NCBI GenBank assembly: GCA_963847185.1
Contig: CAWJYV010000001.1
Location: 32,001-96,000 of the forward strand
DNA length: 64,000 nucleotides
Origin: an uncultured Methanosarcinaceae archaeon
Lineage (GTDB): Archaea > Halobacteriota > Methanosarcinia > Methanosarcinales > Methanosarcinaceae
Direction of reading: 5' to 3'
Every line of letters starts with the position of its first letter. Position 1 is the stretch's first letter. The translations under genes were made by a program, and so were the position numbers. The notes under the pieces are model-generated. The model was not told the DNA's origin. It saw only the letters and a program-made list of their open reading frames with translations, and did no database searches. Of the stretch, positions 3,441 through 53,675 are shown piece after piece.

Positions 3441-3665
3441 GGACGTGGGTTTGATCGTGGATTTGGCTTTGGCGGCTGCGGTGGATGTGGCGGAGGCTGC
3501 GGTGGCTTTGACGGTGGCTGTGGCGGAGGCTGTGGACCAAGGGGAGCTTGCGTAACAACCGTAATTCGTAGAGTCTGCGCCATAGGTGGCAGGGGCGGCT
3601 GTGGCAGGGATGGGTTCGACGGGACTTCGACGGCGGCTTCGACGGGTTGTTTTAATAACCACTGA
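3405..3665 (+). CDS. Gly/Cys/Phe-rich low-complexity peptide (86 aa)
   Basis: GGGGGT RBS; FGG and GGC repeats; a paralog with the same N-terminus is at 5936-6037. Confidence 0.75.
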   Translation: MFGFGGFGGFGRGRGFDRGFGFGGCGGCGGGCGGFDGGCGGGCGPRGACVTTVIRRVCAIGGRGGCGRDGFDGTSTAASTGCFNNH

Positions 3666-5935: not shown

Positions 5936-6037
5936 TTAGCATCCTCCACAGCCGTCGCAGCCGCCAAAGCCGCCGCAGCCGCCAAATCCACAGCCGCCGA
6001 ATCTACCGAATCCACCAAATCCACCAAATCCGAACAT
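5936..6037 (-). CDS. 33-aa Gly/Cys-rich peptide MFGFGGFGGFGRFGGCGFGGCGGFGGCDGCGGC
   Basis: Same RBS and start context and same first 12 aa as 3405-3665; below the ORF-track size cutoff. Confidence 0.7.
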   Translation of the reverse strand: MFGFGGFGGFGRFGGCGFGGCGGFGGCDGCGGC

Positions 6038-6936
6038 TTATTTTACCCCCATGTTTAGTATATTATTTTAGATTTTTTATTGTGCTTTTTCTTATTCTTA
6101 TTTTCTCTTATTTTCTACTCTTTTTTCTACTCTTTTTGCGTAAGGAGAAGACAAAACTTTAAGATTAGAGTATGAAGTGGGCATACGGCCCTCTAATCAA
6201 ATTTTTTATCTATTCCTCAAATATATAATTACTTCTGGAAATCGTATTTGGAAAATATTCTATCACTTCCTTCCGTCTGGAGAGAACAGATTCAAGTTTA
6301 ACTGCCAGAAGTACAAGTTAATATATAATTCTCGAATATATAAAAATAATAGAATATTTTTTACTTAATATTAATAGTCTTTTAAAAACTGAGCACATCT
6401 GACGTTAAAAAAGCGAAGTTACTTTTATACTAATTGGCAGATTTAAATCCTTTAAGATATCCGCTAAAATGAGAAGTTTAGTCCATAATTCAAACTTTTA
6501 CACAAAAAAAAGACCTCAACAATATAAATAAGGCTTTTACGAGACGAATAAATCCCTTTTTCGAATTAAAGCCAATTTAAGGGGTTAAAATACACATATT
6601 TAGTAAAATAAGTTGTATTACTTCTTCATCACTCTTTCGAGATCTGAACTCCATGACTTTATCATAAAGGAAGTAAAGATTACGGGTTTAAAGTATTCAT
6701 TTTACTCGTTTTAATTGCGTCGTCGAGCCGCTCGGGATATATTTTTGTCTATTTGACTATAAGCGATAGCTTTGGACATTGTACATAGCTTCTCAGCTAG
6801 AGTACGGACCAAGATTATCATATAAAAATAAACATTTTAAAAAGATTTATAATGTATAAATAACTTTAAAGAGTAAATATAAAAGCATTTTTAAGCTGAT
6901 AAACTATCCATAAAAATAGAAATATCGAGGGTTATC

Positions 6937-7335: not shown

Positions 7336-7562
7336 AGGATTTCAAATGGGGTTAGCTCCATAATGGCTGACAATCCTTTTTGGGGATTCACTATTATGGA
7401 AAATTAAATTTCTCCGGAATTCTCATTTAACTTTTCTATCTGCTCATCCTTAATGTGGAGCCTTTTGGGATATATCTTGGTCTATTTGGCTACAAGCGAT
7501 AACTGTGGCCTTTGTAAGTGGCTTTTAGATATATGTGTGTCTTCAGGATAGATATGCTGCAA

Positions 7563-7760
7563 TATATCCCAGAAACCTCTCCGATAACTCAGATCTGAGT
7601 CATCGGTAAACATAGTCGGAAGGCTTTAAAGAAATGCTGACATAGAGTATTCATTTTACTCGTTTCAATTGCTTTGTGGAATCTTCAGGGATATATTGGT
7701 CCATCTGGATACGAGCGGTATCCTTGGCCATTGTACGTGGCTTCTAGGCGTATGTGCGTG
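7563..7760 (+). repeat. ~190-bp dispersed repeat with 26-bp palindrome core (7581-7606); partial copies at about 6691-6793, 7455-7528 and 7788-7832
   Basis: ATCCCAGAAACCTCTCCGATAACTCAGATCTGAG...TGTACGTGGCTTCTAGG is shared with copies at 45, 49, 53 and 57 kb. Confidence 0.85.
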
Positions 7761-8094
7761 GAGGCTTCGCAAGATACTCGACAGTGCCAGCCTTCCATAT
7801 ATCCCAGAAACCTCTCCGATAACTCAGATCTGGAACCCCAAAGAGAACCTGATCGACTACAGGTCTTAGCACAGGAACACTTGGAAATCTAAAGTATATC
7901 GGGAAAAAAGATAAGGCGAAGAGGCTGAAAAATTGGGGTTGACACGGACAGAGTACAGTGATTATTGGTTGGACTAGAGAAGGAGAAGAAACAGAAAGTA
8001 ATAAATACAAAATGTAAAGCCACCATTGAAGCAAAGAAGAGGGGAGCTATAATTTGACATTTCTAGTTATGAGGTAAAACGTTGCTAGTTACAC

Positions 8095-17507: not shown

Positions 17508-20141
17508 TTATAACTTTTCTTCTGTGGTGAATTTTATGATGAATTTCGTCCCTTTATCTCTTATTACTTCTATCGTGCCATTTAGTTGGTCTACAAGGAT
17601 GTTTACGAGCTGTAAACCAAGGGTGTCGGGACTTCTAAAATCAATTTTTTCAGGGATGCCAACTCCATCATCTGAGACTATAAGAGTGTATTCAGTACTT
17701 TTTTCTTTATTGTCTTTTAGCTTATCTTCAGCTTTTTCACTGAAGAGTTTAATTTGAACTTCTCCGGTTTCCCTATTTAGAAATGCATATTTTAAAGAAT
17801 TCGAAACAAGCTCATTAACAATTATCCCTAAAGGGACTGCAATATCCATATCAAAGAAAACATTCTCTTCCATGTCAATGTTTAAGCTAACAGCTGTATT
17901 TCCAAGACTGTATGTGTGAAGAAGGTTTTCGACGAGCTTCTCAAGGTATAGTGAGAAATTCAGTGCTTCTTCTCCTTCGCCTTCATGCAGTTCCTCATGG
18001 ATAAGGGCAATGGATAATACCCTGTCATGACTTTCCCTAAAGGCTTCAAGGACTTCTAAGTCATTAATACATTCTCTGTCCTTGAACTTTCCAGCCTGAA
18101 GATCAAGAAGGGACGAGATGACTTGAAGGTTGTTTTTGATCCTGTGATGAATTTCCTTTTTACGGGCAGCTTCGATTTTCAAAAGGGTATTTTCTGCTTT
18201 TTTCCTATCAGTGATGTCCCTGGTAATAGCTGAGATGGCTACTAGTTTTCCATACGAATCAAAAACCGGAGAAAGAGTTATTGAGACATTGATTATTTTG
18301 TCATCTTTTCTTAATCGTAACGTTTCATAGTGCTTGATTTTATCTCTTTGTTTAACTCGTTCAACTAATCTTTGAATTTCCCCTTTAATATTATCCGGTT
18401 CAAGTATTGACACTTTTTTTCCAAGAATTTCTCCAGCTGAATAACCATAAATCTGCTCTGCACCCTTATTCCAGCTGGTAATTATGCAGTCAAGAGATAA
18501 AGTTATAATAGCATCATTTGACGATTCCACAGCATCTGCCAGTGTCTTGATTTTTTCTTCTGTTCTTTTACGTTCAGTAATATCCTGAGCCACTCCTCTC
18601 ACTCGAATAGGAGTGTTGTTCTCATCAAAAATAACTTCGGCTTTTGCATGAACTATGCGCTCTTCTCCACTAGCTAAAACAACCCTATAATCTATGTCAT
18701 AGGTCTTTCCGTTAAAAGCATCTTTAATGACATTAGCCAAATAGTCTCGATCGTTGGGGTGTACAGTACTTAAAGCGTCATTGTAGGATAAAGACTTTAG
18801 AGGGGTAATCCCAAGAATGCGATAAAGCTCATCAGACCAGTAAATTTTATCATTTACAATGTCCCAATCCCAATTTCCAACGTGTGCCATTTTTTGAGCT
18901 TCAGCAAGACGTCTCTCACTTTCTTTCAACGAATTGTAAGATTTCTCAAGCTCTACTGTCCGTTCTTTAACTTTTGCTTCCAAGCTATCATATGCTTTTT
19001 TAAGGGCATTTTCTACTTTTTTACGCTCTGTAATATCGATGAAAGCGGAAATTGACCCAGTTGGGTTTCCATCCTCATCAAGCAAGGGACTAGCGTTTCC
19101 CAATATATGTCTCACTGTGCCATCGAGATAGGCAATATCAAATTCATAGTTGCGTATTTCTTTGCCTGCTGCAGATAATTGAACAGGCAACTCTTCAGGT
19201 TGGAGCTCAACCCCATCTCTTAACATTTCAAATGTCTCAGGTCTCTCCCCTTCTGGGGCAGATTTGGATGCGTTTGCACCTTCAGGAATTCTGAGCCATT
19301 CATAGGATAGCCTATTCCCAGTTATATGAAGGGCTTTAGGATCATGTGTTATCCACACGGCTGCAGGGACTGCATCCAGTAACACTGCCAATTCATTAGA
19401 ATGAGCCCTTTCACGCTCTTCGCTTTCTTTAAGCGCTTCCTCTGATTTCTTACGCTCTGTAATATCAATTTGCACGCCATCCCAGATCGTTCGACCGTCT
19501 GATAGCCTACGAGGGTGGGAGCGTAATCGCATCCAGCGTATCTGACCATCTGGACGTCTCAGCGGTAGATCAATCTCAAAATCGGAGAGTTCGTATGCAC
19601 TGCGTGCCTCGGCTTCAACGAGCTTTTCGAAATAATCTGGTAGTATTTGTCGATGCAGTGTACCCGGATCTCGCAGTACATCTAGAGGGCTAACACCGTT
19701 AAGCTTCTTAATACCTGCACTGCAGTACAGGAAACGGACACTACCATCGGATTCATGGGTATATTGATAGACCGCACTATCTGGCAGGTTGTCGCCTAAG
19801 AGACGAAGCCGTTCCTCACTCTCACGAAGCCTTTCTTCAAGCTCCTTTTGGTCACTTATATCGAACCCATAAATGTTTACACATTCTTCTTCAGACAATG
19901 GGTGAAAAGATACAATATAGACTCTTTTATCTACTCTAACTTCAATTTTCTTAGGGCTATTACTCGAAATTACCCTTTGAACAAAATCTCTGACATTTGA
20001 AGGCAATATTTCTCCAACTCTCACCCCCCAACTATGTAACAAGGGCTCACCTGCCACATTTGAATAAAGAATTGTCCCATCCTTCCCTGCGCTCAGCACT
20101 GGGTTTGGATTCTGTTCAGGAAATTTTTCCATTCGTTTCAT
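17508..20141 (-). CDS. Multi-PAS sensor histidine kinase (HisKA_2 type)
   Basis: DITERK PAS ends, EIHHRIKNNLQV H-box, NELVSNSLK N-box, DDGVG G1-box. Confidence 0.95.
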   Translation of the reverse strand: MKRMEKFPEQNPNPVLSAGKDGTILYSNVAGEPLLHSWGVRVGEILPSNVRDFVQRVISSNSPKKIEVRVDKRVYIVSFHPLSEEECVNIYGFDISDQKELEERLRESEERLRLLGDNLPDSAVYQYTHESDGSVRFLYCSAGIKKLNGVSPLDVLRDPGTLHRQILPDYFEKLVEAEARSAYELSDFEIDLPLRRPDGQIRWMRLRSHPRRLSDGRTIWDGVQIDITERKKSEEALKESEERERAHSNELAVLLDAVPAAVWITHDPKALHITGNRLSYEWLRIPEGANASKSAPEGERPETFEMLRDGVELQPEELPVQLSAAGKEIRNYEFDIAYLDGTVRHILGNASPLLDEDGNPTGSISAFIDITERKKVENALKKAYDSLEAKVKERTVELEKSYNSLKESERRLAEAQKMAHVGNWDWDIVNDKIYWSDELYRILGITPLKSLSYNDALSTVHPNDRDYLANVIKDAFNGKTYDIDYRVVLASGEERIVHAKAEVIFDENNTPIRVRGVAQDITERKRTEEKIKTLADAVESSNDAIITLSLDCIITSWNKGAEQIYGYSAGEILGKKVSILEPDNIKGEIQRLVERVKQRDKIKHYETLRLRKDDKIINVSITLSPVFDSYGKLVAISAITRDITDRKKAENTLLKIEAARKKEIHHRIKNNLQVISSLLDLQAGKFKDRECINDLEVLEAFRESHDRVLSIALIHEELHEGEGEEALNFSLYLEKLVENLLHTYSLGNTAVSLNIDMEENVFFDMDIAVPLGIIVNELVSNSLKYAFLNRETGEVQIKLFSEKAEDKLKDNKEKSTEYTLIVSDDGVGIPEKIDFRSPDTLGLQLVNILVDQLNGTIEVIRDKGTKFIIKFTTEEKL

Positions 20142-20818: not shown

Positions 20819-21070
20819 ACATTTATCAGTCTTACTTAATCATTTCTTTTTTAAAAGTGTCTCACTTCCAAACAGGACTATAACTATATTTGGTATATAC
20901 TATACTACTCCTTATATACTCGCCTAAACTTTTTTAGATTTAAGCTAAGTGTTCAGGATAAATTAGGAAGTGACGGTCAAATTTGCTTCCACTTCTTAAC
21001 AGACAGATCGAGAAACGTATAGAATTTCTTCTATTTTTGCACAAACGATATCAGTAGGCACAATTATCGG

Positions 21071-21095
21071 CAATACGTATAAATATGATACGTTT
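21071..21095. repeat. 25-bp direct repeat CAATACGTATAAATATGATACGTTT (copy 1; copy 2 at 21908-21932)
   Basis: Two identical copies; ACGTAT-N7-ATACGT dyad. Confidence 0.85.
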
Positions 21096-21179
21096 CTGAT
21101 GGCATAGCTATTAGAAGGCTCTATTACCTATACAAATCCCGAACTTCTTTCTTCCTTCTTTAAAAACACATCACTTCTT

Positions 21180-21562: not shown

Positions 21563-21989
21563 ACAACCCCTCTTTGAAAGCTTAAAAAAGTTTTAAAAAA
21601 CATTCATTAAAAGATACTATGATGGACATTTATGCTCATTATTTGGCCAAATATATTCTACTCATTCTATATAACGGTGTTTATTTTATATAATAAACTA
21701 GATTTTCAAATAATAAAAATCCCAAATCGTAAATGGGATGATGATTCTCTACTTAAATATACTAAAATATATACTTTCACACGACTAAAATCACAAACAA
21801 AATAGGTTTTCTACAAAGCCCACCTCTTTTCATCTTTCCTTAAAATGGAGCAACGTGATCTAAAATCTCATTTTTGCATAAACCGCATCAGTTGGCTCAA
21901 TTTAAGACAATACGTATAAATATGATACGTTTTTATTAATATTGTCGATAAATTGACAAACAAGTTAATTAAAGAGGAGATTTTAGAAA

Positions 21990-22445: not shown

Positions 22446-23733
22446 GTATTTTTTTTGCTCTTTTTCTTGCTTGAATGATTCATTGCTATTTATTGATGCA
22501 CGGTCACCAACCTTTTTACTATTTTTGGGATATTATTAGATTTTAAAAGTTCATCAGGATCTCCTCTACTAATTCTTTTACTTTTTTTGTTTCTCCTGTC
22601 TTGGGATCAGTTATTTCTTTTTTCATTGCATCATTACATGAATCAGTAGCCGTAATCATAGAGTTCTTTTGTAAACTTCTTATTTTCAAATTATTATCAA
22701 CATTAAGTGCGGAAGAATCACAATTCTCCGCATTCGGTTTCTTAACTAAAGAAGAAATATTCGATTTATTCTTTCCATAATATTTGTCCCATGTAGTTTT
22801 AAGGTCGGTTTCGTGTACATTATCTAAAAATTCCATCCAACGAAAGATCCACTCTGAACTATTTAATCGGCTTACATATGTTCTGAACACTTCTTCACAG
22901 TTAATTAAGTTATTAATAAACTCAGCATAAAGAGTCATCCAGTACAAATTATGTAAGGAAATAAGTATTCCTGAAGTAGTTTTCATATCCCATAAGTATT
23001 CAGGTTTCTCTAACTGTTTACAAATTGGGCAAATACATTCAAATGAACGAGAGTCCTTATTCTTCTGGCTTCCATTCATCTTCATACCAGGACCATAAAA
23101 ATCAAGGTGAAACATAAACTTACGGAGTGTTCTTCCAAAAGATGCAGATGACGAGTCAAAGTATATTTGAGTGTTAGTATATCTATTTGCATATGCAATT
23201 AATGGTAGTAGATATGGAGAGGATAGACCTAATAAATGGAAAGGTTTACTCACACTATATTCTATCGCGAAACCAAGTCTTAATGGCATTAAATATTTCA
23301 TCTCTGAGCTGGTAGACAGAGAAAATCCATCGTATTCATAATTGTGATTATCTGTTGTTACTTCATACCAGCGTTCCATATCCTCATAACAGTCACCATG
23401 AATACAGTTAAACAACTTAAAGTCTGAATTATAAGCATCATCTATATGTTTATCTTTATACTCAAACATTGATTGAGCATTTTTCGCAGACTCTTTTAGA
23501 CAATCTTCAAAAATCTTCTTATCTTTAAATTGACTCCATTTTCTCGGTGTTGGAATATCAAGAGTCATTCCAACATCACAAACATCCATTTGCCATTGAA
23601 TTACTTTTTCCCACGTAAGTTTTTTATGAATATCTGGATCTTTCAATTCACCCATTTTAGATTTCAAGATTTGATAACCACCGGAGTCACCAAAAAACAA
23701 AACATCGTTTCTAATTTCATTTCTGCCTTTTAC

Positions 23734-25376
23734 CTTGACTTTGTCACATTTCCTTTTCACGTCTACCGTGAAGTATAATTTTATTCCTATATATTTGAGA
23801 TCGTGAAACAAATAACAAGTGACTTTATCAAGTCAAACACTATCTCTGTAGAAAAATACATTTCTGAAACGAATCTTGAATTCTATTTTCAAACTAAAAC
23901 TCGTTGTGTCGCTTCAACGTGTATTGATTACCTTAATGGTTTGATGCTTCTTCCATATCGGAAAAATTTGAGAAAAATGGCAATTTATTGTTGTAAATGC
24001 TCTAACAACGAATCACTCAGCCATTTCCTCTCAACTTCTCCTTGGCTTTCTGCAGATCTCCTCAAATCTGTTCGAACAAAAGCCATTCAAACTATAGGCA
24101 AAAATGGTGTTCTTATACTTGACGAATCAAGCATAAAAAAATCTGGAAATAGTTCTGTTGGAGTTTCTCATCAGTATTGTGGCAACCTTGGAAAAAAGGA
24201 CAATTGTCAGGTTGGTGTATTCCTTGCTTATTTTAAAAAGAAGAGAAGAATGTTGATTGATGAGAGATTATATCTCCCACAAAAATGGATTGATGATAAG
24301 GTACGTTGTTTAAAGGCTAAAGTTCCTCTTGAAGAGATTAAATTCCGAACCAAGCATGAGCTTGGTCTTGAAATGATTGATAATGCAATAGAAGAAGGTA
24401 TTCCTTTTTCCTATGTTACAATGGATGGATTCTACGGTGAAAATCCGGAGTTGTTGACAGAACTTGAAATTAGAGGTTTAACTTTTGTTGCAGACATAGC
24501 TGTCGATACTCTTGTTTATATTGAGGAACCAGTTGCTGAGATACCTGCGAAAAAGGGAATAAGAGGAAGAAAACCCACTATCCCCAAGGTTTTGAATACA
24601 TTATCAACAAGAGTAGATTCTCTTTCCAATTCAGTTGAGGGATGGGAACTTATCAATGTTAGAAAAACGGAAAGAGGGTATAAAAAAGTCTATTTTAAGG
24701 CTATAAAAGTTTGGAGACGTCAGAATAAATTACCTTGTGAGAAGCCGGTATGGCTTCTTATAAGTAAAGATTCAGAATCAAATGAAATTAAATATTCACT
24801 ATGTAACGCCTCTGAAGATACATCATTCGATAAACTTGCAAAAATGCAGAGTTCAAGGTATTGGATTGAGAGAGCATTTCAAGATGCGAAAGGAGACTGT
24901 GGAATGGCAGAATACATGGTGAGAAATTGGAATGCGTGGCACCATCATATGGCATTAGTAATGCTTGCAATGCTTATTTTACTCTCCTATCAGAAAAAAT
25001 TCAACAAAATGTATAAGATGTCAATTCCTGGAGTTTTATGGATACTGAAGTACCATAATCCATTGAAAAGAATCGATGCTCGGGAAATTGCAGGAATCTT
25101 AAATCAAGATAATGAGTTGAGAAGGAAAGCAAGGGTTAGCAGATTAAGAAGTTCATAATAATTTTCTGATTGGAATAAAATGGATTCGTGTTCCGACGAC
25201 TGGTAAGTATACAATTTTGACAGGAAAAATTTATGACAGTAGAAATAATGGAGATAGTGATCAAGAAAAAAATAGAAGAAACAAGAATAGGAAAGGGAAA
25301 AGATTAAAGATACAGCAAATTTGAATGGAAATAAGTTGTGATGATTGTAAAAATGAGTTAATTTGACAAAGTCAAG
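23734..25376 (+). mobile_element. IS701-family insertion sequence (1643 bp)
   Basis: Inverted repeats CTTGACTTTGTCACATT / AATTTGACAAAGTCAAG (16/17 match); 4-bp TSD TTAC at 23730-23733 and 25377-25380. Confidence 0.93.
23803..25158 (+). CDS. IS701-family transposase
   Basis: ILDES..K.G..SVGV..QYCGNLGK..NCQV, DGFYG, RYWIERAFQDAK and WHHHMALV motifs. Confidence 0.93.
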   Translation: MKQITSDFIKSNTISVEKYISETNLEFYFQTKTRCVASTCIDYLNGLMLLPYRKNLRKMAIYCCKCSNNESLSHFLSTSPWLSADLLKSVRTKAIQTIGKNGVLILDESSIKKSGNSSVGVSHQYCGNLGKKDNCQVGVFLAYFKKKRRMLIDERLYLPQKWIDDKVRCLKAKVPLEEIKFRTKHELGLEMIDNAIEEGIPFSYVTMDGFYGENPELLTELEIRGLTFVADIAVDTLVYIEEPVAEIPAKKGIRGRKPTIPKVLNTLSTRVDSLSNSVEGWELINVRKTERGYKKVYFKAIKVWRRQNKLPCEKPVWLLISKDSESNEIKYSLCNASEDTSFDKLAKMQSSRYWIERAFQDAKGDCGMAEYMVRNWNAWHHHMALVMLAMLILLSYQKKFNKMYKMSIPGVLWILKYHNPLKRIDAREIAGILNQDNELRRKARVSRLRSS

Positions 25377-25708
25377 TTACATTATCTATTCCATAGTAAG
25401 CAGATACTAGCATTGCATTATAAGAAAAAAATGGATTATCCGACCACCAACTACACTGTTTATCTTTGCCTAGAATAGAGACACTAGATGGATAAAAGTA
25501 ATCAATATCTTCAGGTGTAATCGTAACCGGAATATAAATTAATTTATTTTCTTTAAATGTGTTTACCATGTTGTAACCCCTTAATTTCCTGATCTTTAAC
25601 GGACTTTGCGAAATTTAAAAAAAGAAATGAAGAGATAGATTTTTGTTAAAAATAAAAAATTTAAAGTTTTGGGTTGTATTTTTTGGTTTTTAAAACCTTT
25701 TCAGGATA

Positions 25709-27118
25709 TTAGATAGCACTAGAAGCTTTGCCATCTTTTTTATCTTCAATATCTTCCACAAATGTTGGTTTTCCCCAGTTCTCGAGTTCAGTTTCATGGA
25801 AGGGATCTACATAACTTCCACCAGGGAACATTTTCATTGCAATCTGGTAAACTGGCATATACTTGCTTTTATCCTTTTCACCTTTTTTAAATATAATATC
25901 AGGTTGATAATCTTCAACTGGTTCTAAATTACCTTTAAGTCCAAACAATACAAACTCGACAACACCGTTGAAATATACACCAGGTTTTCTTTCAGCATCA
26001 TATATCCCGATAGATTTCAGACTGAAACCCCAACTTCGCATGAGACCCCATCTATCTTCGAGATTTTGAGTAGTCGCCCATAAAAAAAGTGCAGAATCTT
26101 TTGAAATTTTGGTTTCTGTTTTCTTAGCTTCGTCGGCATTTTTTGGATCCGCAACTATAACATTATACACCCCTGGTGGTGGTACAGCTATCATTTTAGG
26201 TGGCTTATTAGTATGTTCTTTCTTGTACTTCTCGAAATCTTTATCGGCTTTGTTTGGTGTGACAGCGCCTGTTATAGCTTTATCTACAAGCTCTTTTGCT
26301 TTCGCAGCAACGTCCTTAATTTCTTGTGGAGCATCTTCTTTAGCGTTAGGGTCTTTTGCAGCTTCCATTAACTTGAGTAACTTATATCCTGCATCAATTG
26401 AGAGGCGATCAGCCCTCATTTCATCCATAACATATTTGGCATCTTTATCTTTGTTATTATACGACTTCCCTATATATTTCAGATTTGAAAGGGTGCCTTC
26501 ACTGAGACCTATTACTTTAGCTTGCTTTTCGGTAGTGCTACCATATTCTTCGTCCCGATAACTCAGATCTGAGTTAACGGAATTTTGTTTAAGTTTACTT
26601 TGTTTTCGCTCATCGGCGCGTTTAGTGTAAATTTCTTCTAAAAGTTCAGTTTCTTTAAAAATCTGTAATGGATTTTTCTTTCGATGCTTATTGAATTCAA
26701 TTATAGCTTCTTCTTCATCTACATCTAAAGAAAACGGCTTCATGAAGCACAGAGCTTCAATTTCTTTGTATTCTTTATTTTCTTTTTTCTTATACTCTTC
26801 TTCTTTTTGTAATTCTTTTAATGCTCTCCATCTGCGATGACCAGATATAATCAGATACTCCTGGTCAATGACAATAGGTTCAAGCTGGCCAAGGTCTCTA
26901 ATACTCTCTTTTAAAGCCTCATCAATTGTTTCCTTCCCATATATCTCAATATTTTTTGGATGTTCTTTAAGCTTTTTAGGATTGATAGGAAAAATTCCGC
27001 TAATTACTTCTTTTTTCTTTGGTTGTTCTTGTTTTTCATCTTGCAGTACTTGTTCATCTTGCAGTACTTGTTCATTATCATGAACATGTTTTTGAGTATC
27101 TTCTTTATTTACTTCCAT
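25709..27118 (-). CDS. ParB/Srx-domain + HTH + degenerate MT-A70-like methyltransferase fusion
   Basis: LKESI..LGQLEPIVI..IISGHRRWRA (ParB); QAKVIGLSEGTL (HTH); YNVIVADPK, ALFLWAT, WGF, EFVLFG (MT-A70-like, DPPW changed to DPKN). Confidence 0.85.
   Translation of the reverse strand: MEVNKEDTQKHVHDNEQVLQDEQVLQDEKQEQPKKKEVISGIFPINPKKLKEHPKNIEIYGKETIDEALKESIRDLGQLEPIVIDQEYLIISGHRRWRALKELQKEEEYKKKENKEYKEIEALCFMKPFSLDVDEEEAIIEFNKHRKKNPLQIFKETELLEEIYTKRADERKQSKLKQNSVNSDLSYRDEEYGSTTEKQAKVIGLSEGTLSNLKYIGKSYNNKDKDAKYVMDEMRADRLSIDAGYKLLKLMEAAKDPNAKEDAPQEIKDVAAKAKELVDKAITGAVTPNKADKDFEKYKKEHTNKPPKMIAVPPPGVYNVIVADPKNADEAKKTETKISKDSALFLWATTQNLEDRWGLMRSWGFSLKSIGIYDAERKPGVYFNGVVEFVLFGLKGNLEPVEDYQPDIIFKKGEKDKSKYMPVYQIAMKMFPGGSYVDPFHETELENWGKPTFVEDIEDKKDGKASSAI
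26555..26580. promoter_or_regulatory. Intragenic 26-bp palindrome, candidate parS-like site
   Basis: CCGATAACTCAGATCTGAGTTAACGG is the exact reverse complement of the copies at 53509-53534 and 57130-57155. Confidence 0.55.
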
Positions 27119-27190: not shown

Positions 27191-28756
27191 ATGTTCTATG
27201 AAATTTTTGAAAAAAAATGGTTTAATTATAAGCCTTATAACACTTATTCAAACGAAAAAAAAATTGATGTACTTCTTACCTTACGTAGTGTTTTTAATAT
27301 AAAATTAGAAGCAACTGAAAATATTAGAGAATTGAGATATTTAGATGTTTTAGAGGAAAAAATATTAAGACTAGTACAGTCTGACTTAATAGAGGATATA
27401 TATAAGTGCGAGAATGAAATAAACAAACTAAACGAAGATATTACAGATCCAGATATACTAGAAAAAATAGAGACTGCTGGTATTGATGGGACAATGCATA
27501 AAATAACTGGACATGAAAAATTATCTGATAACGGCTTTGATCATATTAAAGGACTACTTCTATTGAATGAACTTCACGTACTTCAAATGGAATCGTTAAA
27601 GGATCGAAAACGTATTCCTTATATCAGTGAATATGAAAAAAAAGTTTTGAGTGAAATATTAAACATTTTATCAATTTCTATTTTCGATAACTACCAAAAA
27701 ATGGAATCTATTTATCGTCGGAAGATTCCAATTGATTTTAAATATAGACGAGAATTAAAAGATGCAATAGAAGATTCAGAAATAGAAAATTCTAAAGTTT
27801 TAGGTCCGGAAAAAAGTCATATCCAGGTTGATTACCTAAAAACAGAAGATCTAGATTTAAGAAAATGGGAGCCTAAAAAATGGTTTACAAGACGATATGA
27901 TTTATTTCGGGCTTCATACGATCCATATTATTTCGCTTATATATTTAATTTTCAAGCGTTAATGAACGGTTTTGACAGATATTCTCTAAAGAAACAAATT
28001 GAAGTTGGTCTTGCTAATTATTGCTCAATTCAAGTACAACTCAAAGCTCTTTACATGCGGTTAAATGAAAAAAAAGAGCTAACTGAGTATGAAGAAATAA
28101 TATGGAATTATAGAATTAGAACACTTTTCTCCAGTAAGATTTATTATGACGTTCTTATAGCAAAAATATTCTTAATCGATATCAAAAAGGATCATTTTTA
28201 TAAAGACAATATATTAAACGAACTTGAAAGAAAAGTATCAAAAAATATTAAATTAGAGAAGTACCACATAGAAAATGACCAACCATTTACTCTATCTATG
28301 GAATCTTCTTATTGTGAACCTGCTAAAAAAAATAAAGAACTTCTAGAAGAAGCAGAAAAAGTTTACAACTATAAGTACAATTCTTTGTGTTGTTTTATTA
28401 AACCTGATCAAATGAGTGTTGACAGAGCCTATATACCTCCTAGTGATCCTTACAACCCTAACCAAGCAGAGTTCATTAAATTTCTTTTGGCAAAACATGA
28501 GTTAGAAACAGTAGAAATCGAAGCATTGCTTCAATATAATCGAACATTAAATAAATCGAGATATGAAAATAAATATGATAAAATTTTCGTTAAAAGCCTA
28601 TGTGCTTACAAAACATCGTGTGTTCTACTGACAGATGAAGAAATATGGGATGCATACTATACGCTCCCAGATGATTATCCTGATAAAGGAAAAATTCTCA
28701 ATGAAATAAAAAAGGCAAAGGTTGATCTTGATCCAAAGGAAATTAATAAAGAGTAA
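27191..28756 (+). CDS. Hypothetical protein (521 aa, very AT-rich)
   Basis: Long ORF; no motif recognised. Confidence 0.75.
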   Translation: MFYEIFEKKWFNYKPYNTYSNEKKIDVLLTLRSVFNIKLEATENIRELRYLDVLEEKILRLVQSDLIEDIYKCENEINKLNEDITDPDILEKIETAGIDGTMHKITGHEKLSDNGFDHIKGLLLLNELHVLQMESLKDRKRIPYISEYEKKVLSEILNILSISIFDNYQKMESIYRRKIPIDFKYRRELKDAIEDSEIENSKVLGPEKSHIQVDYLKTEDLDLRKWEPKKWFTRRYDLFRASYDPYYFAYIFNFQALMNGFDRYSLKKQIEVGLANYCSIQVQLKALYMRLNEKKELTEYEEIIWNYRIRTLFSSKIYYDVLIAKIFLIDIKKDHFYKDNILNELERKVSKNIKLEKYHIENDQPFTLSMESSYCEPAKKNKELLEEAEKVYNYKYNSLCCFIKPDQMSVDRAYIPPSDPYNPNQAEFIKFLLAKHELETVEIEALLQYNRTLNKSRYENKYDKIFVKSLCAYKTSCVLLTDEEIWDAYYTLPDDYPDKGKILNEIKKAKVDLDPKEINKE

Positions 28757-29030: not shown

Positions 29031-29368
29031 ATAAACTATAAATTATTGATTCATTCCTAATGTAAGATAAGATCGTAGTGATTAGATGCCTTCTTTTATA
29101 AAACAAAATTACATTGAGGCTTTAAAACAATACGTATTTATAGGATTCGACTTGCTCAAGATTTGATCTATCCCAAAGACAAAACAAGAATCGAAATAAC
29201 TAAAGGGCACTGGATTTTCCAGGTCATATAACCTTAGTAGTCTCCTGTTAGATTAGTGCGTGGCTTCTAATAAGATATGCACCCAATAGGGGTTTTAGAG
29301 AAAAGTAGAGAGAATAACGATAATCACAATATGTATTAATAGGAATCGCAAAAGTTGAGCAAAAAAAA

Positions 29369-30565
29369 TTACTTTATTTTGGATGAAACTTTAGCCAGTA
29401 AGGTTGGATCTTGTTGTAAATATGTGAGTAAATCTGATATTAGCATTTCCTTATCCTGTGCTGCTTCCTGTGTGACCGGCATCCCACAATCACAATATCT
29501 CATTCCTGACGGGATCGGCATACTGCACCTGGCACATCTATTAATCTTGTTTCCTTCCTTATCCTGAACAACTCTTATCCCGTAAGATGCAAGTACAGCA
29601 TTATCAATTTCGGGATTCGACAAATGTATATACGTTTCCGTTTGGCTGCTAGATCCAGCCCATCCAAATTGCTTCTTAAGCTGTTGTTCAGTCATTGTAT
29701 TGGCGAGTCTAGTTGCCTGAGAATGGCGGAGTAAATGACAATATACGTTCTTTTTAATCCCAGCTTTCTTGGCTGCCTTTTTTAACAACAGATTCATTGA
29801 TATTGTTCTTAGTGGCGTGTGCACACGCGGTTCGTCCTTAGCTTGTTTCTGTTTATTCTTACTATAACTTCTATTAGTATACTCTCTAGCTGTAGTGAAT
29901 AATGGAGCTTGGGGATCATTTGCATTTGGATGATCAACAAGCCACTGCTTAAGATACACCTGGTACTTATGCAACAACACCTGTCTCTTCCCAGTTTTAC
30001 CATTAAGTGTTATATGGAACCCATAGGGATGATCTTTAACATCGCCTATTTTACAGTTTTGGATTTCCCCAACTCTTGCTCCTAACTCATAAATTATAGC
30101 TACCAATGCTTTATCCCGGATGCCAATACAACATGCAATTATTTTCTCAACTTCTTCCTCACTAAGGATATCTTCCGACTCTAATTTTTTACCTTCTACT
30201 CTAGCAAACCCGAACTTTGCAAGCTCAATTAGCTCTTTATTATCAGTGCTTGCACCATATCCTTTCAGGAACCTTTGAAACGTAATTTTGTACTGCATCT
30301 TACTTGTCGGGCTGGCAGGATTCCCATTTTTCTTTGTCCAATCATTGATTGCGTCTTGGATATCATTAACATCCTTCTTGGTCAACTTGTCCAGGTCGGT
30401 CTTAGTATGTGTCAACAGGAACCGCAAAAAATGCTCATTGTTTCTAATGGTAGCTTCCTTCAAACCACTACGATTCAGGTCCTTTAGATACTCAAGAACA
30501 ATGCTCTGGTTATGTTCGGAAATATTATTCTCAATACAAAAGTTAACTATATTATGCGTATCCAT
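29369..30565 (-). CDS. Tyrosine recombinase/integrase with C-terminal Zn-ribbon
   Basis: R (GARVGE), K (GKTG), HLLRH, FGW and Y (TYIH) residues; CARC..CDCG; GGAG RBS before ATG 30565. Confidence 0.92.
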   Translation of the reverse strand: MDTHNIVNFCIENNISEHNQSIVLEYLKDLNRSGLKEATIRNNEHFLRFLLTHTKTDLDKLTKKDVNDIQDAINDWTKKNGNPASPTSKMQYKITFQRFLKGYGASTDNKELIELAKFGFARVEGKKLESEDILSEEEVEKIIACCIGIRDKALVAIIYELGARVGEIQNCKIGDVKDHPYGFHITLNGKTGKRQVLLHKYQVYLKQWLVDHPNANDPQAPLFTTAREYTNRSYSKNKQKQAKDEPRVHTPLRTISMNLLLKKAAKKAGIKKNVYCHLLRHSQATRLANTMTEQQLKKQFGWAGSSSQTETYIHLSNPEIDNAVLASYGIRVVQDKEGNKINRCARCSMPIPSGMRYCDCGMPVTQEAAQDKEMLISDLLTYLQQDPTLLAKVSSKIK

Positions 30566-30960
30566 AGAAACTTTCTCCAATTTATAATTATACAACGCAT
30601 AATATATATAAGATTGGATAATGTATATTATTAACTGGTTTTTGGGAAGGAAATGATTAATATTACTAAACATTTGTAAATAAATTACTTTTAGGAGTAG
30701 AAGGTTTTGGGGGTGGTAGGCAAAATAACCTTTACAATAAAATTTAGTTTATAGAGTTTTAAGTAAGCTAGCTTCCATATGAAATTTAATAAGCGTGTGA
30801 CGTGGTGCCAGTCTAAACACTTGTAGAAGAGATTGTCCGCGGGATATGTAGAAGACTGTCCCCGCACCTGTTATTAATTTATACCCCTGTGACTGTAGTC
30901 GGGCAGCTCGGAAATAATAATAATAAGAAGGGAAAATATAAGCAAACTGTTCGTATAAAA

Positions 30961-31080
30961 TATATACTACAAAAGTTTCAAAAAAGGAATGATGTTTATT
31001 ATCGGATGGATAATAGGTCTATACCACAAAACATTATTGAGCACCGGAATTTGTAATAAGTTATATACTACAAAATGTTG
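30961..31080. repeat. Three iteron-like direct repeats TATACYACAAAA
   Basis: Copies at about 30961, 31019 and 31062, in the same position relative to the wHTH paralog as 1282-1408. Confidence 0.65.
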
Positions 31081-31083
31081 ATA

Positions 31084-31710
31084 TTACTCCAACTCGACTT
31101 CACCGCTAACAATCTCCCTCATGCGATTTTCCATGTATAATATTGTTTCTTTCTTTTTTATATACTGCTGCCCGTATGTGGTTATTGAGTAGTACGGCAA
31201 TAGTTGTTCAGGGAGCAATTTCAAGTCTTCTTTTGTTGTTATATGACGACTGACAGGGAATTTACCATAGGTCTCCATATGCTGAGACCTTTTTGCAACC
31301 CGATTCAGGCTAACGCCGCGCTGAATTCTGTTCAAATAATTTGCATACGCCTCTATGCCCTTTTTTGTGATTTTGTAGCGATAGAGACCATTCGGCCCTT
31401 TCTTTTCTAATCGCTGTATGTAAGGTAGTTTAATGATCTTGCCATTTCTTTTCTGGATCTTCTGATACCGTGACATGACACTTGAAACTGCTGTATATTG
31501 AACCCCCGTAATTCTTTCAATATCTCGTGTAGTCAGTGGTTCTTTATCTTCTAACCATGTGTTATACAGCGCCTCTAAAATACGGAACTTTAAAAAGTTG
31601 GGTTTATGAGCATATCCGATTTTCACGATATTTCTCACCTGAAAGTTTTGTGTGAAAATTAATATCGGAAGCCTCGATAATAAGGGTTTGTTTCCGCTAT
31701 CCGCAGGCAC
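31084..31710 (-). CDS. Winged-helix DNA-binding protein (paralog of 1413-2036)
   Basis: Shares GYAHK.NFLKFRILEAL, LTTRDIE.ITGVQ and KGPNGLYRYKITKKG with 1413-2036. Confidence 0.75.
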   Translation of the reverse strand: MPADSGNKPLLSRLPILIFTQNFQVRNIVKIGYAHKPNFLKFRILEALYNTWLEDKEPLTTRDIERITGVQYTAVSSVMSRYQKIQKRNGKIIKLPYIQRLEKKGPNGLYRYKITKKGIEAYANYLNRIQRGVSLNRVAKRSQHMETYGKFPVSRHITTKEDLKLLPEQLLPYYSITTYGQQYIKKKETILYMENRMREIVSGEVELE

Positions 31711-32228
31711 AATATATATTAATAGGGTTACTCAGGCAAGTTTTTCGGGATATAAAAAAGCAAAATTCCGACTTTACATTTATCCCTGTATAATTCCCTT
31801 AATTATATGGCTTCCCGGAAACTGGAGATACAAGCCTTAGAAGAAGCTAAAAGCTTGGCTGCGAGGCTTAGCGTGGCTTCCAATAATAAGTATGTAGAAT
31901 AAAGGTCCGGTAGGATAAAAAAGAGATTGGAGTGATTGTCCTGTTAATTTTATGGTCACAATGTTTGGAGTTGAATTAAGGGTAGCCACGAGCTAAAAGC
32001 CTATTAATTAAATTCAGGTGAAACCATTATTTATTTTTTGGAGTCATTTCTGAGTACAAGCTGGTTTTTTAACTTCTTATATTTAAAGTGCCCTTTGTAT
32101 TAGCAATCCTTACTCAGAATGTCTACATATCAGTTTCTTTTGATATCCACCCTACCGGTTTTTAATATTTAGATTATATCATTGTTTATATTAGCTTTTG
32201 AAATTCAATCAATTAAAGAGGCTGGGAA

Positions 32229-44940: not shown

Positions 44941-45344
44941 CTACAAGAATTACAAAATTTTAACTAATTCCTTAAATTATAATATCGAGAATTCTTCTTT
45001 TAAAAAAATGATTTGATTCTTTTTATTTATATGGATTCAATTCATAAATATTCACAAGCCAGATATCAAAAAAGATTGATATGAAATAAGAGGATAATTT
45101 CTCATTGTTCTTTTACAAATAAGCTATTCGATCATTATCTTGAAAATGATCAAGAGTGTCAACAGGCCTCGTAAAGAATAGTAGTTGAAAAAAAGCCTAA
45201 GTATGGATACTTTTTCTATTAAAAGACACTTTTTCACGAAATCCTATTTCTTCTAATTCCCCCAGAGCCTCTATACTCAACTAAAAAAAGCTTTCTTACC
45301 TATGTTATTATGAGTAGATCAGGCTTTACGGAGTATTCAACCGC

Positions 45345-45760
45345 GCCAGCCTTCCACATCTACCAGAAACCTCTCCGATGACTCAGATCTGGGAATCGGT
45401 AAACATAATCAGAAGGCTATAAAAGAAGTGCTGATATAGAGTATTTACTCTTTTTAATTGCTTTGTGGAATCTTCTGGGATATATTGGTCCCATCTGGCT
45501 ACAAGCGATAGCCCTGACCATTGTACGTGGTTTCTAGGCATATGTGCGTGGAAATGAGGGTAGACGTACCGCGCCAGCCTTCCACAATTATCCCAGAAGC
45601 TTAAATAGCACTTTATTGGCATTAAAATCCCTGTAATTACAGGGCTTCCCGGAAGCAGGGAGATATAAATGCCTAGGAAGGGGCTAAACGAGGTTTGTAC
45701 GTGGGTAGAATTACTCCCAGGTATATGCACGTAGAAGGCTCGGGATAGGCCTGTAAAAAA
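45345..45760 (+). repeat. Dispersed ~190-bp repeat (degenerate palindrome at 45375) followed by a related type-B unit
   Basis: Homologous to 7563-7760 and 57113-57490. Confidence 0.8.
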
Positions 45761-45974
45761 TTAAATTGTCGGACAGCCTGTAAAAGACAGGGTACTCGTG
45801 ACCACACGGACTCCCGAAGTAATAAATGATTGATCAAGTTCAAAACACATTTTCAAATACTAGATGCCGTTAAATTCCTCTGTTATCAAAAATTATGTAG
45901 AAAAAGTCTTTTAATATTTTTTAGTGATCCATAGGACTTAGTCCCATTTTATGTAATTTAGTTCAGTACTTAGT

Positions 45975-46223
45975 AAGTTACTACTCATTTAAGTCATTAC
46001 TTAGTTAAATTACTTTAATCAAGTTACTACTCATTTAAGTCATTACTCAGTTAAATTACTTTAATCAAGTTACTACTCATTTAAGTCATTACTCAGTTAA
46101 ATTACTTTAATCAAGTTACTACTCATTTAAGTCATTACTTAGTTAAATTACTTTAATCAAGTTACTACTCATTTAAGTCATTACTCAGTTAAATTATTTT
46201 AATCAAGTTACTACTTAGTTGAG
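45975..46223. repeat. Tandem array of 46-bp units (5 full + 1 partial) bracketed by an inverted repeat
   Basis: AAGTTACTACTCATTTAAGTCATTACTYAGTTAAATTAYTTTAATC at 45975, 46021, 46067, 46113 and 46159; inverted repeat at about 45925-45946 / 46258-46279. Confidence 0.92.
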
Positions 46224-46741
46224 TTACATCCCTCCTTTGTACGTCTTCTTCATACATTGGGGACTGAACCTATGGATCAATTATATAACTGTGATAAAAG
46301 GTATAAGTAGATAACGATGGGAAAAGGTAAATTGCTTCTTTCACAAGAGAAAAATCGACTCTAAAATCAAAAAATTTCAGGTCGGTAATTTATAAGATGC
46401 ATATTAGGATTACAGCCCCAAAATGGATTAATCAACTTTTTCTGGGAGTACCCCATATGAACATTTAAAGTTGACTCCTAACTAATTCATATCCTTTTAT
46501 AGCACTTTTTGCATTAAATATCTACTTACGGGCTTCTTGGAAGCAGGGAGATATAGATTGCCTATGAAGTGCATACGATGACTATACGCCTTTAGCGTGG
46601 TTACTGGATATACGCACAAGAAGGCTCTGGATAGTGCAAAAATAGATATGCTTGTTAGCTTCGTATATAAACCAGCTTCAATAATAGTGGCTTGTCCAGT
46701 TTATACTGGCTGGACAGGTTCGAAGGTTATTCAATTAATTG

Positions 46742-49168: not shown

Positions 49169-49473
49169 AATTCCCCAACGCTGTTTTAAAACAGGCACTA
49201 ATACTTTGTTAGACCCTCTTTTATTAGATACTATTAGTCTAATAGAATTTGACCTTAATATAATACTAAGCAGATCCCTAACAATGTCTTACTACAAATT
49301 AATTCTTCATTCAATATTCATAAAATTGTTCTATAATAAGATAGTACATACTAAGAAGCCATCTGGAAACTATTTCGAACTCTCCCTGAGCCTCTACACT
49401 CAATTAAAATAGCTACCATACTTCTTTTATCCTGAAAACTAGTACAGGCTTCGCAGATAAACCGACTGCACTA

Positions 49474-53480: not shown

Positions 53481-53675
53481 CCCTTCCATAATTATCCCAG
53501 AAACCTCTCCGTTAACTCAGATCTGAGTTATCGGTAAACATAGTCAGAAGGCTTTAAAGAAATGCTGACATAGAGTATTCATTTTACTCGTTTTAATTAC
53601 GTGGAGTCTTCAGGTATTGAATCCATTTGGCTGCGAGTGATAGCCTTGGACATTGTACGTGGTTTTTAGGGATGT
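53481..53675 (+). repeat. Dispersed ~190-bp repeat (palindrome at 53509-53534)
   Basis: CCGTTAACTCAGATCTGAGTTATCGG. Confidence 0.85.

Follow-up and report, generated by a model that had tools for sequence, protein, structure and literature searches.

A gene for a ParB-like protein in this archaeal DNA contains, within its own coding sequence, a 27-nt palindrome that recurs, letter for letter, between other genes. Does the protein recognize this palindrome, or did the gene receive it as a piece of a repeat? The question was examined over the whole stretch of 64,000 nucleotides, referred to here as the window, whose numbering is used throughout. The preliminary description of the locus had proposed a parS-like system, in which the HTH of the protein would recognize the palindrome; the intragenic copy would be a putative loading or autoregulatory site, and the repeat copies would be further sites. 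In such a system, the protein might bring its fused MT-A70-like domain, or the TGT-like enzyme encoded next to it, to these sites.

The ParB-like gene and its product

The ORF at 25709–27118 (minus strand) codes for 469 residues. A ParB_N domain, an HTH-like middle region and an MT-A70-like C-terminus follow one another in the order described earlier, and the palindrome lies directly before the HTH-like region. ParB_N at residues 59–104 scored 28 bits with Pfam PF02195, just above the cut-off of 26.3. The GxxRxxA-type motif was intact in the translation as GHRRWRA (in the context ISGHRRWRA), in keeping with the GHRR that had been reported. PHROG 4715 ('ParB-like') matched residues 27–337 (2.5e-19). 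The C-terminal part was matched by PADLOC MTase_II (1.9e-10, residues 338–448) and by the MT-a70 entry 7f4r of the PDB (E 0.003, residues 335–442); the 469-residue protein gave no match to Pfam PF05063 (MT-A70). The nearest clusters in the atlas were MT-A70 + ParB_N fusions (score 0.96). Both domains are present in one polypeptide, the MT-A70 matches being weak.

The catalytic motif of MT-A70-type enzymes is of the DPPW type, (D/N)PP(Y/F/W). At this position the protein reads DPKN (VIVADPKN), and the segment that follows is short. Methyltransferase activity is therefore doubtful.

No Pfam HTH model matched the 469-residue protein, even at E values up to 10, and the single-sequence AlphaFold model was unusable (mean pLDDT 35). 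Two distant ParB-family proteins (24–30% identity) could be aligned over residues 45–296, with SGHRRW invariant. The linker that carries the palindrome was not obviously longer than in these two proteins. The alignment therefore does not point to a simple insertion of 27 nt; an existing linker could equally well have been replaced or selected. A C-terminal dimerisation domain was not found, the C-terminus matching MT-A70-type methyltransferases instead. No ParA-binding motif (LG[KR]GL-like, as given in the extracts of PMC12704722) was visible in residues 1–50, and the Pfam scan of 42 ORFs gave no ParA/CbiA-type domain.

Relatives of the gene were sought in 185,579 species genomes by exact matches of six 8-residue peptides, a search that detects close relatives only; none was found among the 303 candidate stretches. 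Because exact 8-residue matches were required, diverged ParB/MT-A70 genes in other genomes would be missed. A tblastn search with the protein returned four phage and four plasmid records, all of them partial and below 34% identity.

The palindrome and its copies

The plus strand at 26555–26581 reads CCGATAACTCAGATCTGAGTTAACGGA. Its reverse complement, TCCGTTAACTCAGATCTGAGTTATCGG, forms nt 538–564 of the ORF 25709–27118(-). These 27 nt are codons 180–188, which encode S180–R188 (SVNSDLSYR, the linker codons named previously); the conserved G-L-S of the HTH-like region follows 15 codons later. The copy is a 26-nt dyad with one T.T mismatch, and consists of 10-nt inverted arms flanking a 6-nt AGATCT spacer at its centre. 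TCC and CGG occur only once each in the ParB-like gene, both within the palindrome. Out of the six reading frames of the palindrome only one is stop-free, and this is the frame used by the gene.

When the window was searched with the 27-mer, allowing up to three mismatches, five sites were obtained, each found on both strands. Three of them (26555–26581, 53508–53534 and 57129–57155) had no mismatch, so the 27-bp identity that had been claimed is exact. The other two, at 7580–7607 and 49499–49526, had 2–3 mismatches and correspond to the near-identical sites listed at 7581 and 49500; the degenerate sites named at 45375 and 7816 also exist. A compensated variant at 56913–56938, CCGATGTGCCAGATCTGACACATCGG, was absent from that list. 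The perfect 16-mer AACTCAGATCTGAGTT starts at 26560, 49505, 53514 and 57135, and at 7586 with one mismatch. The expected number of 16-mer sites was 0.57, and none of 100 shuffles reached five. For the 27-mer, no match with up to three mismatches appeared in any of 100 dinucleotide shuffles. Together with the identity at 27 of 27 positions, the asymmetric one included, this refutes chance resemblance, to which we attach a negligible probability.

Several features of the gene and the palindrome are in accord with a parS-like system. The ParB motif is intact, ParB_N passes its Pfam cut-off, if narrowly, and the linker shows no lengthening against the distant relatives. The perfect 16-bp dyad is of parS size and stands 15 codons ahead of G-L-S. 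A position inside a gene is also ordinary for parS, one such site being present inside spo0J. According to extracts of PMC4368675, parS sites within coding sequences are common; 9 of the 10 predicted sites of P. aeruginosa are so placed.

The palindrome as the core of a dispersed repeat

All copies of the palindrome outside the gene occupied the same place within a dispersed intergenic repeat of about 215–260 nt. A profile of this repeat matched the gene at profile positions 50–78 only (26553–26581, E 3e-5), bearing out the earlier remark that only the palindrome is shared. All of the following units are on the plus strand. The two identical 27-mers lie in the unit 53463–53675 and in the unit 57085–57297. 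The latter is in tandem with the unit 56875–57088, in which the palindrome arms are compensated (GTGCC...GACAC). The unit 49455–49678 has a perfect 24-nt dyad (49501–49524) bracketed by internal inverted repeats of 22 nt that are 77% complementary. The right arm is degenerate in the unit 45330–45544, and one arm of the palindrome 7580–7607 is altered in the unit 7533–7754, which is directly preceded by a partial unit (7454–7534). Of three solo units, two had internal inverted repeats, one pair of 22 nt (77%) and one of 14 nt (93%), both placed away from the termini of the conserved unit. Tandem arrangement of units was frequent.

The repeat, with the same palindrome, was also present in four other Methanosarcinales assemblies, namely OW818660.1 and three MAGs (incomplete). 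Its neighbours there were unrelated housekeeping genes (catalase, subtilase, PGK, UDG, radical SAM and histidine kinase). In the window and five outside loci together, 17 dyads had AGATCT at the centre and pairing at 7 or more of the 10 arm positions; 16 of them were inside repeat units, and the sole solo dyad was the gene copy. The variant with the T.T mismatch (CCGTTAAC...TTATCGG) accounted for 7 of 18 repeat-borne palindromes and was seen in the four assemblies as well as in the window. As the T.T asymmetry of this commonest variant recurs in the gene copy, the latter was in all probability copied by descent and did not evolve independently.

Across 16 aligned units, 92.7% of the dyad positions were paired, and there were 11 double-changed cells at four pairs. 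None of 500 shuffles gave a value as high, and only 22–41% pairing was obtained in slid controls. Such compensatory changes within one genome fit a hairpin better than they fit recognition of an invariant sequence by a single HTH.

These results tell against a parS-like system, which we consider unlikely. Every site other than the gene copy is embedded in a conserved repeat of more than 200 nt. The repeat occurs in four other assemblies, whereas a close relative of the gene was detected nowhere in a search of limited sensitivity. The arms differ among copies of the same genome, and do so by compensation. Selection by the protein would be expected to give a perfect dyad, but the asymmetric mismatch is common to the gene copy and the repeats. 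Partner and domain are wanting as well: there was no ParA-like ORF among the 42 scanned, and the protein is without a ParA-binding motif or a C-terminal dimerisation domain. Finally, the survey in PMC12704722 reports, in its extracts, that archaeal ParB-HTH proteins are unlikely to act in segregation.

A folded nucleic acid is what the compensatory pattern would suit, and the hairpin might function as RNA or be bound by a host factor. The gene copy would then place the gene under the same host control (processing, pausing or a roadblock), a possibility that we rate as slim. It appears just as improbable that the repeat itself codes for, or shapes, a small structured RNA or that a host regulator binds to it. 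In its mRNA context, the gene copy gave a stable RNA hairpin of -16.9 kcal/mol (z -2.5). All nine unit matches longer than 40 nt in the window were on the plus strand, and in three cases a unit lay 257–574 nt upstream of a paralogous PAS histidine-kinase gene. However, this association may simply reflect tandem duplication. The whole-unit consensus folded weakly (-11 kcal/mol, two helices only), the z-score of the unit fold being -1.65, and no Rfam family was obtained for the window at the gathering level or for 56700–57700 at E up to 1. No tRNA was found in the window. Counts in a scan for sigma-70 promoters and terminators, a model unsuited to archaea, were at or below those of shuffles.

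No transposase or other factor that moves or maintains the repeat was identified, and there was no Y1 transposase or RAYT among the 42 window ORFs scanned. The unit had no match among the plasmids or phages searched. The 16-mer string was not found in the literature searched, nor was a published description of the repeat found among the matches listed.

The island that carries the gene

The ParB-like gene lies on an integrated, partly decayed mobile island, and its ParB_N/MT-A70-like fusion belongs to a type that is common in viruses. The GC content at 26–28 kb is 0.31, compared with 0.33–0.42 elsewhere. The tyrosine recombinase/integrase of the island is encoded at 29369–30673 (minus strand; Pfam Phage_integrase 4e-18, PHROG 1 integrase 2.9e-27). 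It also matched an XerA-like NCBIfam model (2.4e-24, below the model cut-off). Direct repeats bounding the island were sought, and none was convincing. A neighbouring ORF of 521 residues had no phage match and no Pfam, NCBIfam, PADLOC or PHROG family, with atlas scores below 0.9.

The adjacent TGT-like gene lies downstream of the ParB-like gene on the same strand, but it is not intact. Its C-terminal part (DpdA/arcTGT-like) is at 22543–23730 on the minus strand. It matched NCBIfam tgt_general at 3.6e-12 (45.9 bits, below the cut-off of 47.6), arcTGT at 2.1e-10 and PDB 1iq8 at E 0.007. An IS at 23731–25379 (plus strand) splits the gene. This IS has 20-nt terminal inverted repeats, 90% complementary, and a DDE_5 transposase ORF at 23803–25158 (Pfam PF13546, 6.5e-50); its left end is 90% identical to positions 6586–6833 of an outside locus, L001. 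The N-terminal part of the TGT-like gene is probably the open frame at 25380–25569 (minus strand), which runs from MVNTF to the end of the IS and begins 140 nt after the ParB-like stop. When the IS together with 1, 4, 7 or 10 nt was removed in silico, one open TGT-like frame of about 455–458 residues resulted, with its stop at 22543. An island in decay, with an IS in the TGT-like partner and DPKN in place of DPPW, further weighs against a working parS-like system.

A second ParB-like remnant at a repeat

A truncated repeat unit is located at 7775–7833 (plus strand). It comprises the left part of the repeat with the canonical left arm and the AGATCT centre, followed by a right arm of another variant type (GGAAC). 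At 7856–7935, on the same strand and beginning 24 nt past the truncated unit, there is a remnant of the HTH region of a second ParB-like gene, equivalent to residues 194–225 of the intact gene and with an in-frame stop. In tblastn, the match TTGLSTGTLGNLKYIGK had 13 of 17 residues identical (E 0.007), and a local alignment with the intact gene extended over 31 residues (score 72). Over 15 codons, counted by eye, there were eight synonymous third-position differences and two replacements. The junction of this chimera (7775–7935) falls within 7832–7856. A mixed-arm truncated unit joined to a ParB-like HTH remnant shows that DNA is exchanged between gene and repeat at or near the palindrome.

Two related candidates were rejected. 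The repeat to the right of the palindrome was considered as degenerate ParB coding sequence; there was no significant similarity, and the profile envelope ends at 7853. A 'ParB_N-like' tblastn match at 6219–6323 (E 3.4), considered with a half site at 6640 as an attR-type junction spanning 6219–6660, looked like chance. It was dropped because the translations of the match and of its inverted duplicate look non-coding.

Such a chimera could also come from site-specific recombination. The palindrome would be the crossover core of a tyrosine recombinase, possibly the integrase of the island, with the gene copy as an attP-like or secondary site. This we regard as improbable. It is equally doubtful that the repeat units were its many chromosomal targets and that the chimera is an old crossover product. 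Core sites of the dif or lox type have inverted arms around a spacer of 6–8 bp, and the architecture of the palindrome matches them. The integrase gene is 2.8 kb from the palindrome, units are often tandem, and the truncated unit switches arms at the invariant centre and then runs into ParB-like coding sequence, which is attL-like. Yet the present island has neither repeat units nor half palindromes flanking it, and integration at the gene copy would split an intact gene. There was only one clear hybrid (the hybrid-arm site at 7816–7840) among the 18 repeat-borne palindromes, and a matching attR-type junction was not found. Moreover, the sequence at 7833–7856 partly resembles a variant unit in outside locus L005 rather than the gene.

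The remnant has a bearing on protein binding too, because here also a ParB-like HTH stands 3' of a repeat palindrome. In a fuller version of that proposal, a ParB clamp of the classical type (GxxRxxA motif and HTH) with a degenerate MT-A70 domain, encoded by the archaeal integrated element, would load at 26-bp palindromes common to the element and a host-wide repeat family. From these parS-like entry sites it would mark or modify DNA with the TGT-like enzyme of the next gene downstream, the second remnant being the relic of a sister system. We hold this to be quite unlikely.

Origin and meaning of the gene copy

The reading that we favour, giving it an even chance, is a passive copy: exchange would have brought a recombination-prone repeat hairpin into the ParB-like gene, at a linker that tolerates it. 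In the MITE/REP-like repeat, which is non-coding and scattered between the genes of several Methanosarcinales genomes, the palindrome forms a conserved hairpin core. A solo hairpin may have passed from a repeat unit to the gene by gene conversion, a templated patch or recombination at the palindrome. Its new position would be the flexible stretch that links the ParB N-domain to the HTH-like region. We infer the direction, from repeat to gene, and the mode of exchange. As the copy sits in the only orientation and frame in six that is free of stop codons, the protein presumably tolerates it. The copy is probably not needed for DNA recognition by the protein itself. It may be noted that the intact ParB-like gene and the second ParB-like remnant each adjoin a palindrome; from a one-off neutral event, one would expect fewer such cases.

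If the copy is passive, it would be a clean archaeal case of a repeat hairpin written in frame into the gene of a mobile element. It would also be an instance of DNA exchange between a gene and a repeat at a palindrome, useful for the annotation of Methanosarcinales repeats, and would advise caution in taking shared palindromes for binding sites. If the protein binds the palindrome instead, the ParB-CTPase/MT-A70 fusions, a large and uncharacterised class, would gain a defined cis site and a mechanism, and archaea a rare parS-like site.

Comparison with known systems

As in bacterial ParB-parS, the N-domain carries a GxxRxxA-type motif and a helical HTH-like region comes after it; there is also a 16-bp perfect dyad with several regional copies, one of them inside the gene itself. 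In contrast to it, no ParA was found among the 42 ORFs and the C-terminal dimerisation domain is missing. The candidate sites form the core of a larger repeat, which is also present in genomes that yielded no close relative of the gene, and compensatory changes distinguish their arms. In addition, the host is archaeal, with the gene on a mobile island.

The ParB-CTPase/MT-A70 fusions of viruses, mobile elements and archaea, as far as the extracts of PMC12704722 describe them, share the domain order and the mobile-element context. Here, however, DPKN replaces (D/N)PP(Y/F/W), and a short segment follows. No cis site is described for this class in those extracts. DpdA/DpdB, in the extracts of PMC10164549, likewise pairs a TGT-family gene with a ParB-fold protein in one transcription unit. 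DpdB, unlike the present protein with GHRRWRA and an MT-A70-like domain, has DGQQR and an SspE-like helical domain, and the TGT-like gene here is interrupted by the IS and scores 45.9 against the NCBIfam cut-off of 47.6. If the protein did load at the palindromes, the locus would represent a site-loaded counterpart of DpdA/DpdB in archaea, and the ParB/MT-A70 class would have its first parS-like cis site.

With REP/BIME elements and MITEs, the repeat shares a short, non-coding, intergenic, multi-copy nature and a conserved imperfect palindrome. As those elements often are, it is clustered, taxon-restricted and biased in orientation, and inverted repeats bracket the palindrome in two of three solo units. 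The unit is longer than a REP, and no RAYT or matching transposase was seen within the window. Its ends resemble direct, not inverted, repeats, and no target-site duplications were defined.

The gene copy itself may be compared with the Rickettsia palindromic elements (RPEs), as characterized in the extracts of PMC10969869. It differs from them in that only the 27-nt core is involved, in one intact gene, with a linker that is not visibly lengthened. As with RPEs, part of a dispersed palindromic repeat stands in frame within an intact ORF, in a region of the host protein that should tolerate extra or altered residues.

The palindrome in the ParB-like gene and its copies

On the plus strand, positions 26555–26581 of the window read CCGATAACTCAGATCTGAGTTAACGGA. 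The coding (minus) strand of the ParB-like gene (ORF 25709–27118) reads TCCGTTAACTCAGATCTGAGTTATCGG at nt 538–564 of the ORF, and this 27-mer encodes S180–R188 (SVNSDLSYR). It contains a 26-nt dyad centred on AGATCT, with one T·T mismatch outside its perfectly palindromic inner 16 nt. When the window was searched for the 27-mer, it was found with no mismatches at 53508–53534 and 57129–57155, and with two or three mismatches at 7580–7607 and 49499–49526. None of 100 dinucleotide-preserving shuffles of the window gave any match, and the 16-mer matched five times in the window against 0.57 expected; mere chance is given a negligible probability. The preliminary description had stated that the palindrome is dispersed over the window, with further sites near 7581, 49500, 45375 and 7816. 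The dispersal was confirmed, as were the first two of these sites, and the last two are present as degenerate copies; a compensated variant at 56913–56938 was absent from that list.

The dispersed repeat

The intergenic sites fall into families D9, D10, D12, D16, D18 and D19 of the window repeat search (44–112 nt, 6–7 copies). A search with a profile built on six window units gave, all on the plus strand, six full-length units (starting at 7533, 45330, 49455, 53463, 56875 and 57085) and three partial ones (6666–6794, 7454–7534 and 7775–7833). The units are about 215–260 nt long and stand in tandem at 7454–7833 and 56875–57297. In two of the three solo units examined, imperfect inverted repeats enclose a stretch made up of the palindrome and the roughly 90 nt on its right, and the unit ends resemble direct repeats. 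Since the profile matches the ParB-like gene only at profile positions 50–78 (26553–26581), the earlier statement that gene and repeat share only the palindrome is correct. A search of main article texts found no earlier description of this repeat or palindrome.

Four PAS/HisKA_2 histidine-kinase paralogues (17508–20141, 46742–49198, 50166–52889 and 54145–56475) are 65–90% identical at the nucleotide level in blocks; three of these genes are in tandem, with a repeat unit 257–574 nt upstream of each start. A unit also lies beside kinase-like sequence in a MAG contig (L004). Another short repeat (about 100–200 nt, 77–88% identity) occurs at 57371–57471, 31804–31899, 2140–2217, 45561–45761 and 46499–46668; it adjoins the right end of the repeat arrays at 45.6 and 57.3 kb, and is also seen upstream of two 207/208-aa ORFs and in an outside locus (L002 5191–5296). 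A non-coding tandem repeat with a 46-nt period (45975–46215; 5.2 copies, 97% matches) lies 400 nt from a repeat unit.

Variation of the palindrome

When 16 full units were aligned, no variation was seen at the centre CAGATCTG or in the outer CG...CG, and four inner pairs varied on both sides yet stayed complementary (e.g., AACTC/GAGTT versus GTGCC/GACAC and GTTCC/GGAAC). Dyad cells were paired in 92.7%, with 11 double-changed cells; either value was reached in 0 of 500 shuffles, a control that leaves the relatedness of the units in and makes the result suggestive, not a probability. With partners slid by 1–3 columns, 22–41% were paired. Such compensation within one genome is less easily squared with a single sequence read by a single HTH than with a hairpin folded in DNA or RNA, or with self-templated correction of the palindrome. 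A role at the RNA level or for a host factor appears quite improbable; no Rfam family was matched in the search of the repeat and window, and no tRNA was found.

Of the 18 repeat-borne palindromes, seven carry the same variant as the gene, in which T faces T (CCGTTAAC...TTATCGG). This is the most frequent variant of the repeats, seen both in the window and at four outside loci (L001–L004). Because the gene copy has the T·T asymmetry of this common variant, it was probably copied by descent and not independently selected as a perfect dyad.

Occurrence in other genomes

Among 185,579 species representatives, no close homologue of the ParB-like protein was found; none of 303 peptide-pattern stretches encoded a relative, in a scan that required exact 8-residue matches and so covers close relatives, not distant homologues. 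A 20-letter dyad pattern, scanned against the same collection, gave six sites at five loci. Three sites lie on OW818660.1, a 3.69-Mb metagenome chromosome, and the remaining loci are in three Methanosarcinales/Methanosarcinaceae MAGs. All six are flanked by the same repeat sequence, and none is within a ParB-like frame. The outside loci carry many more units, often in tandem, among unrelated housekeeping neighbours (catalase, subtilase, phosphoglycerate kinase, UDG, radical SAM and histidine kinase). In the window and outside loci together, 17 AGATCT-centred dyads were paired at seven or more of their ten arm positions; 16 were within repeat units, the copy in the ParB-like gene being the only solo one. 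The palindrome is present in genomes with no detected close relative of the gene, a partial test of the parS-like system proposed in the preliminary description.

A second junction of gene and repeat

The partial unit at 7775–7833 is normal as far as the AGATCT centre and then altered: the left arm of its palindrome is canonical, and the right arm, GGAAC, is of the type of two variant units at outside loci (L002:1462 and L005:257). At 24 nt beyond the truncated unit, plus-strand positions 7856–7935 encode TTGLSTGTLGNLKYIGK..., where the intact ParB-like protein has VIGLSEGTLSNLKYIGK... (13 of 17 residues identical; E 0.007, window search). The remnant aligns over 31 residues to aa 194–225, the HTH region, with an in-frame stop inside. 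Over 15 codons, counted by eye, there were eight synonymous third-position differences and two replacements from the intact gene. As the codon differences are mostly synonymous, 7856–7935 is most probably a decayed fragment of a diverged coding ParB-like paralogue and not a chance similarity. In strand and in order (palindrome first, HTH second) the remnant agrees with the intact gene, but palindrome and HTH are about 25 nt closer together. Because 7833–7856 resembles the L005 variant unit (20 of 27 nt identical, arm included), the breakpoint can be placed only within 7832–7856. This junction shows that the palindrome is recombination-prone, and that, by whatever route, ParB-like genes and repeat units exchanged DNA at or next to it at least once more. 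Equally, it suggests that more than one ParB-like copy had a palindrome ahead of its HTH. Alternatively, the palindrome could be a tyrosine-recombinase core site and the 7.8-kb chimera a product of crossover there, a reading that the 10-nt arms around a 6-nt spacer and the integrase 2.8 kb away would suit; we consider it improbable.

The 27-mer contains a stop codon in five of its six frames, and it is the remaining frame that the gene uses. The codons TCC and CGG are used just once each in the ParB-like gene, in both cases within the palindrome. A simple insertion is disfavoured because the linker is of similar length in two distant ParB-family proteins, although at their 24–30% identity the linker alignment is weak evidence. 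Replacement of linker codons, by conversion from the repeat or by selection, would be no less likely than a net insertion. The best explanation, to which we give about an even chance, is that a host repeat family has the palindrome as its hairpin core, and that the solo copy would have passed from a repeat unit to the gene by DNA exchange and would now sit, tolerated, in the linker of the protein.

The ParB-like protein and its island

The ParB-like protein (469 aa) has three parts. The N-terminal ParB domain (PF02195, 28 bits, cut-off 26.3) contains GHRRWRA, so that the GHRR motif is intact, as previously described. The middle part is helical and lies under phage ParB-like families (PHROG 4715, 2.5e-19, aa 27–337), and the C-terminus is MT-A70 methyltransferase-like (PADLOC MTase_II, 1.9e-10; PDB 7f4r, E 0.003). 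In place of DPPW, the motif expected of MT-A70-type methyltransferases, the protein has DPKN with a short segment behind it, which makes catalytic activity of this domain doubtful. The closest atlas clusters (score 0.96) are fusions of ParB_N with MT-A70, most of them from viruses; such fusions are enriched in archaea and of unknown function, according to a 2025 survey (PMC12704722). A perfect 18-nt tandem repeat (27035–27075, 2.3 copies) at the 5' end of the ORF encodes a repeated QVLQDE.

A gene downstream on the same strand is TGT-like (45.9 bits with NCBIfam tgt_general, cut-off 47.6) and is split by a DDE_5 insertion sequence (23731–25379) with 20-nt inverted ends. Removal of the insertion sequence leaves one open frame of about 455–458 aa, from 25569 to 22543. 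The left end of this element is 90% identical to L001 6586–6833 (OW818660.1). Across a 72-nt gap from the ParB-like gene, a divergent 521-aa ORF (27191–28756, plus strand) had no match in Pfam, NCBIfam, PADLOC, PHROGs or phage records (best atlas score 0.89). The island also holds a tyrosine recombinase (29369–30673) and a 208-aa ORF, and GC in this region drops to 0.31.

The island has three copies (21064–21106, 21901–21943 and 29121–29163) of a motif with the inverted repeat ACGTAT(N7)ATACGT, a candidate for the operator of a regulator that the island encodes. Two segments of roughly 1 kb, at 1212–2273 and 30890–31955, are paralogous (about 79% nucleotide identity over 256 nt). In each, a conserved module lies upstream of a 207/208-aa ORF without a known family, and the segment at the left window end suggests the remains of a second related island. 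An inverted duplication (2709–3502 and 5938–6659; arms of 33–123 nt, 77–97% complementary) that includes GC-rich short tandem repeats surrounds an IS4/5-family transposase gene (4729–5544).

Comparison with known systems

A true parS-like site is, in our judgement, unlikely. The likeness to parS/ParB lies in the fold of the protein, the size of the dyad and its position inside a gene, nine of ten P. aeruginosa parS sites being predicted in coding sequences (PMC4368675). The differences are that no ParA-like ORF was found in the window, that the dimerisation domain is lacking, and that the palindrome also occurs in genomes where the search for close relatives of the gene found none. The repeat is similar to REP/MITE elements, although the inverted repeats found in its units are internal and not terminal. 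Rickettsia palindromic elements are likewise repeat DNA read in frame (PMC10969869), whereas only the palindrome core is present in the ParB-like gene. Repeats that viruses have in common with their hosts have served as markers of the host (PMC11602168). DpdB/DpdA also pairs a ParB-fold protein with a TGT-family enzyme, but DpdB has a DGQQR motif and another C-terminal domain (PMC10164549).
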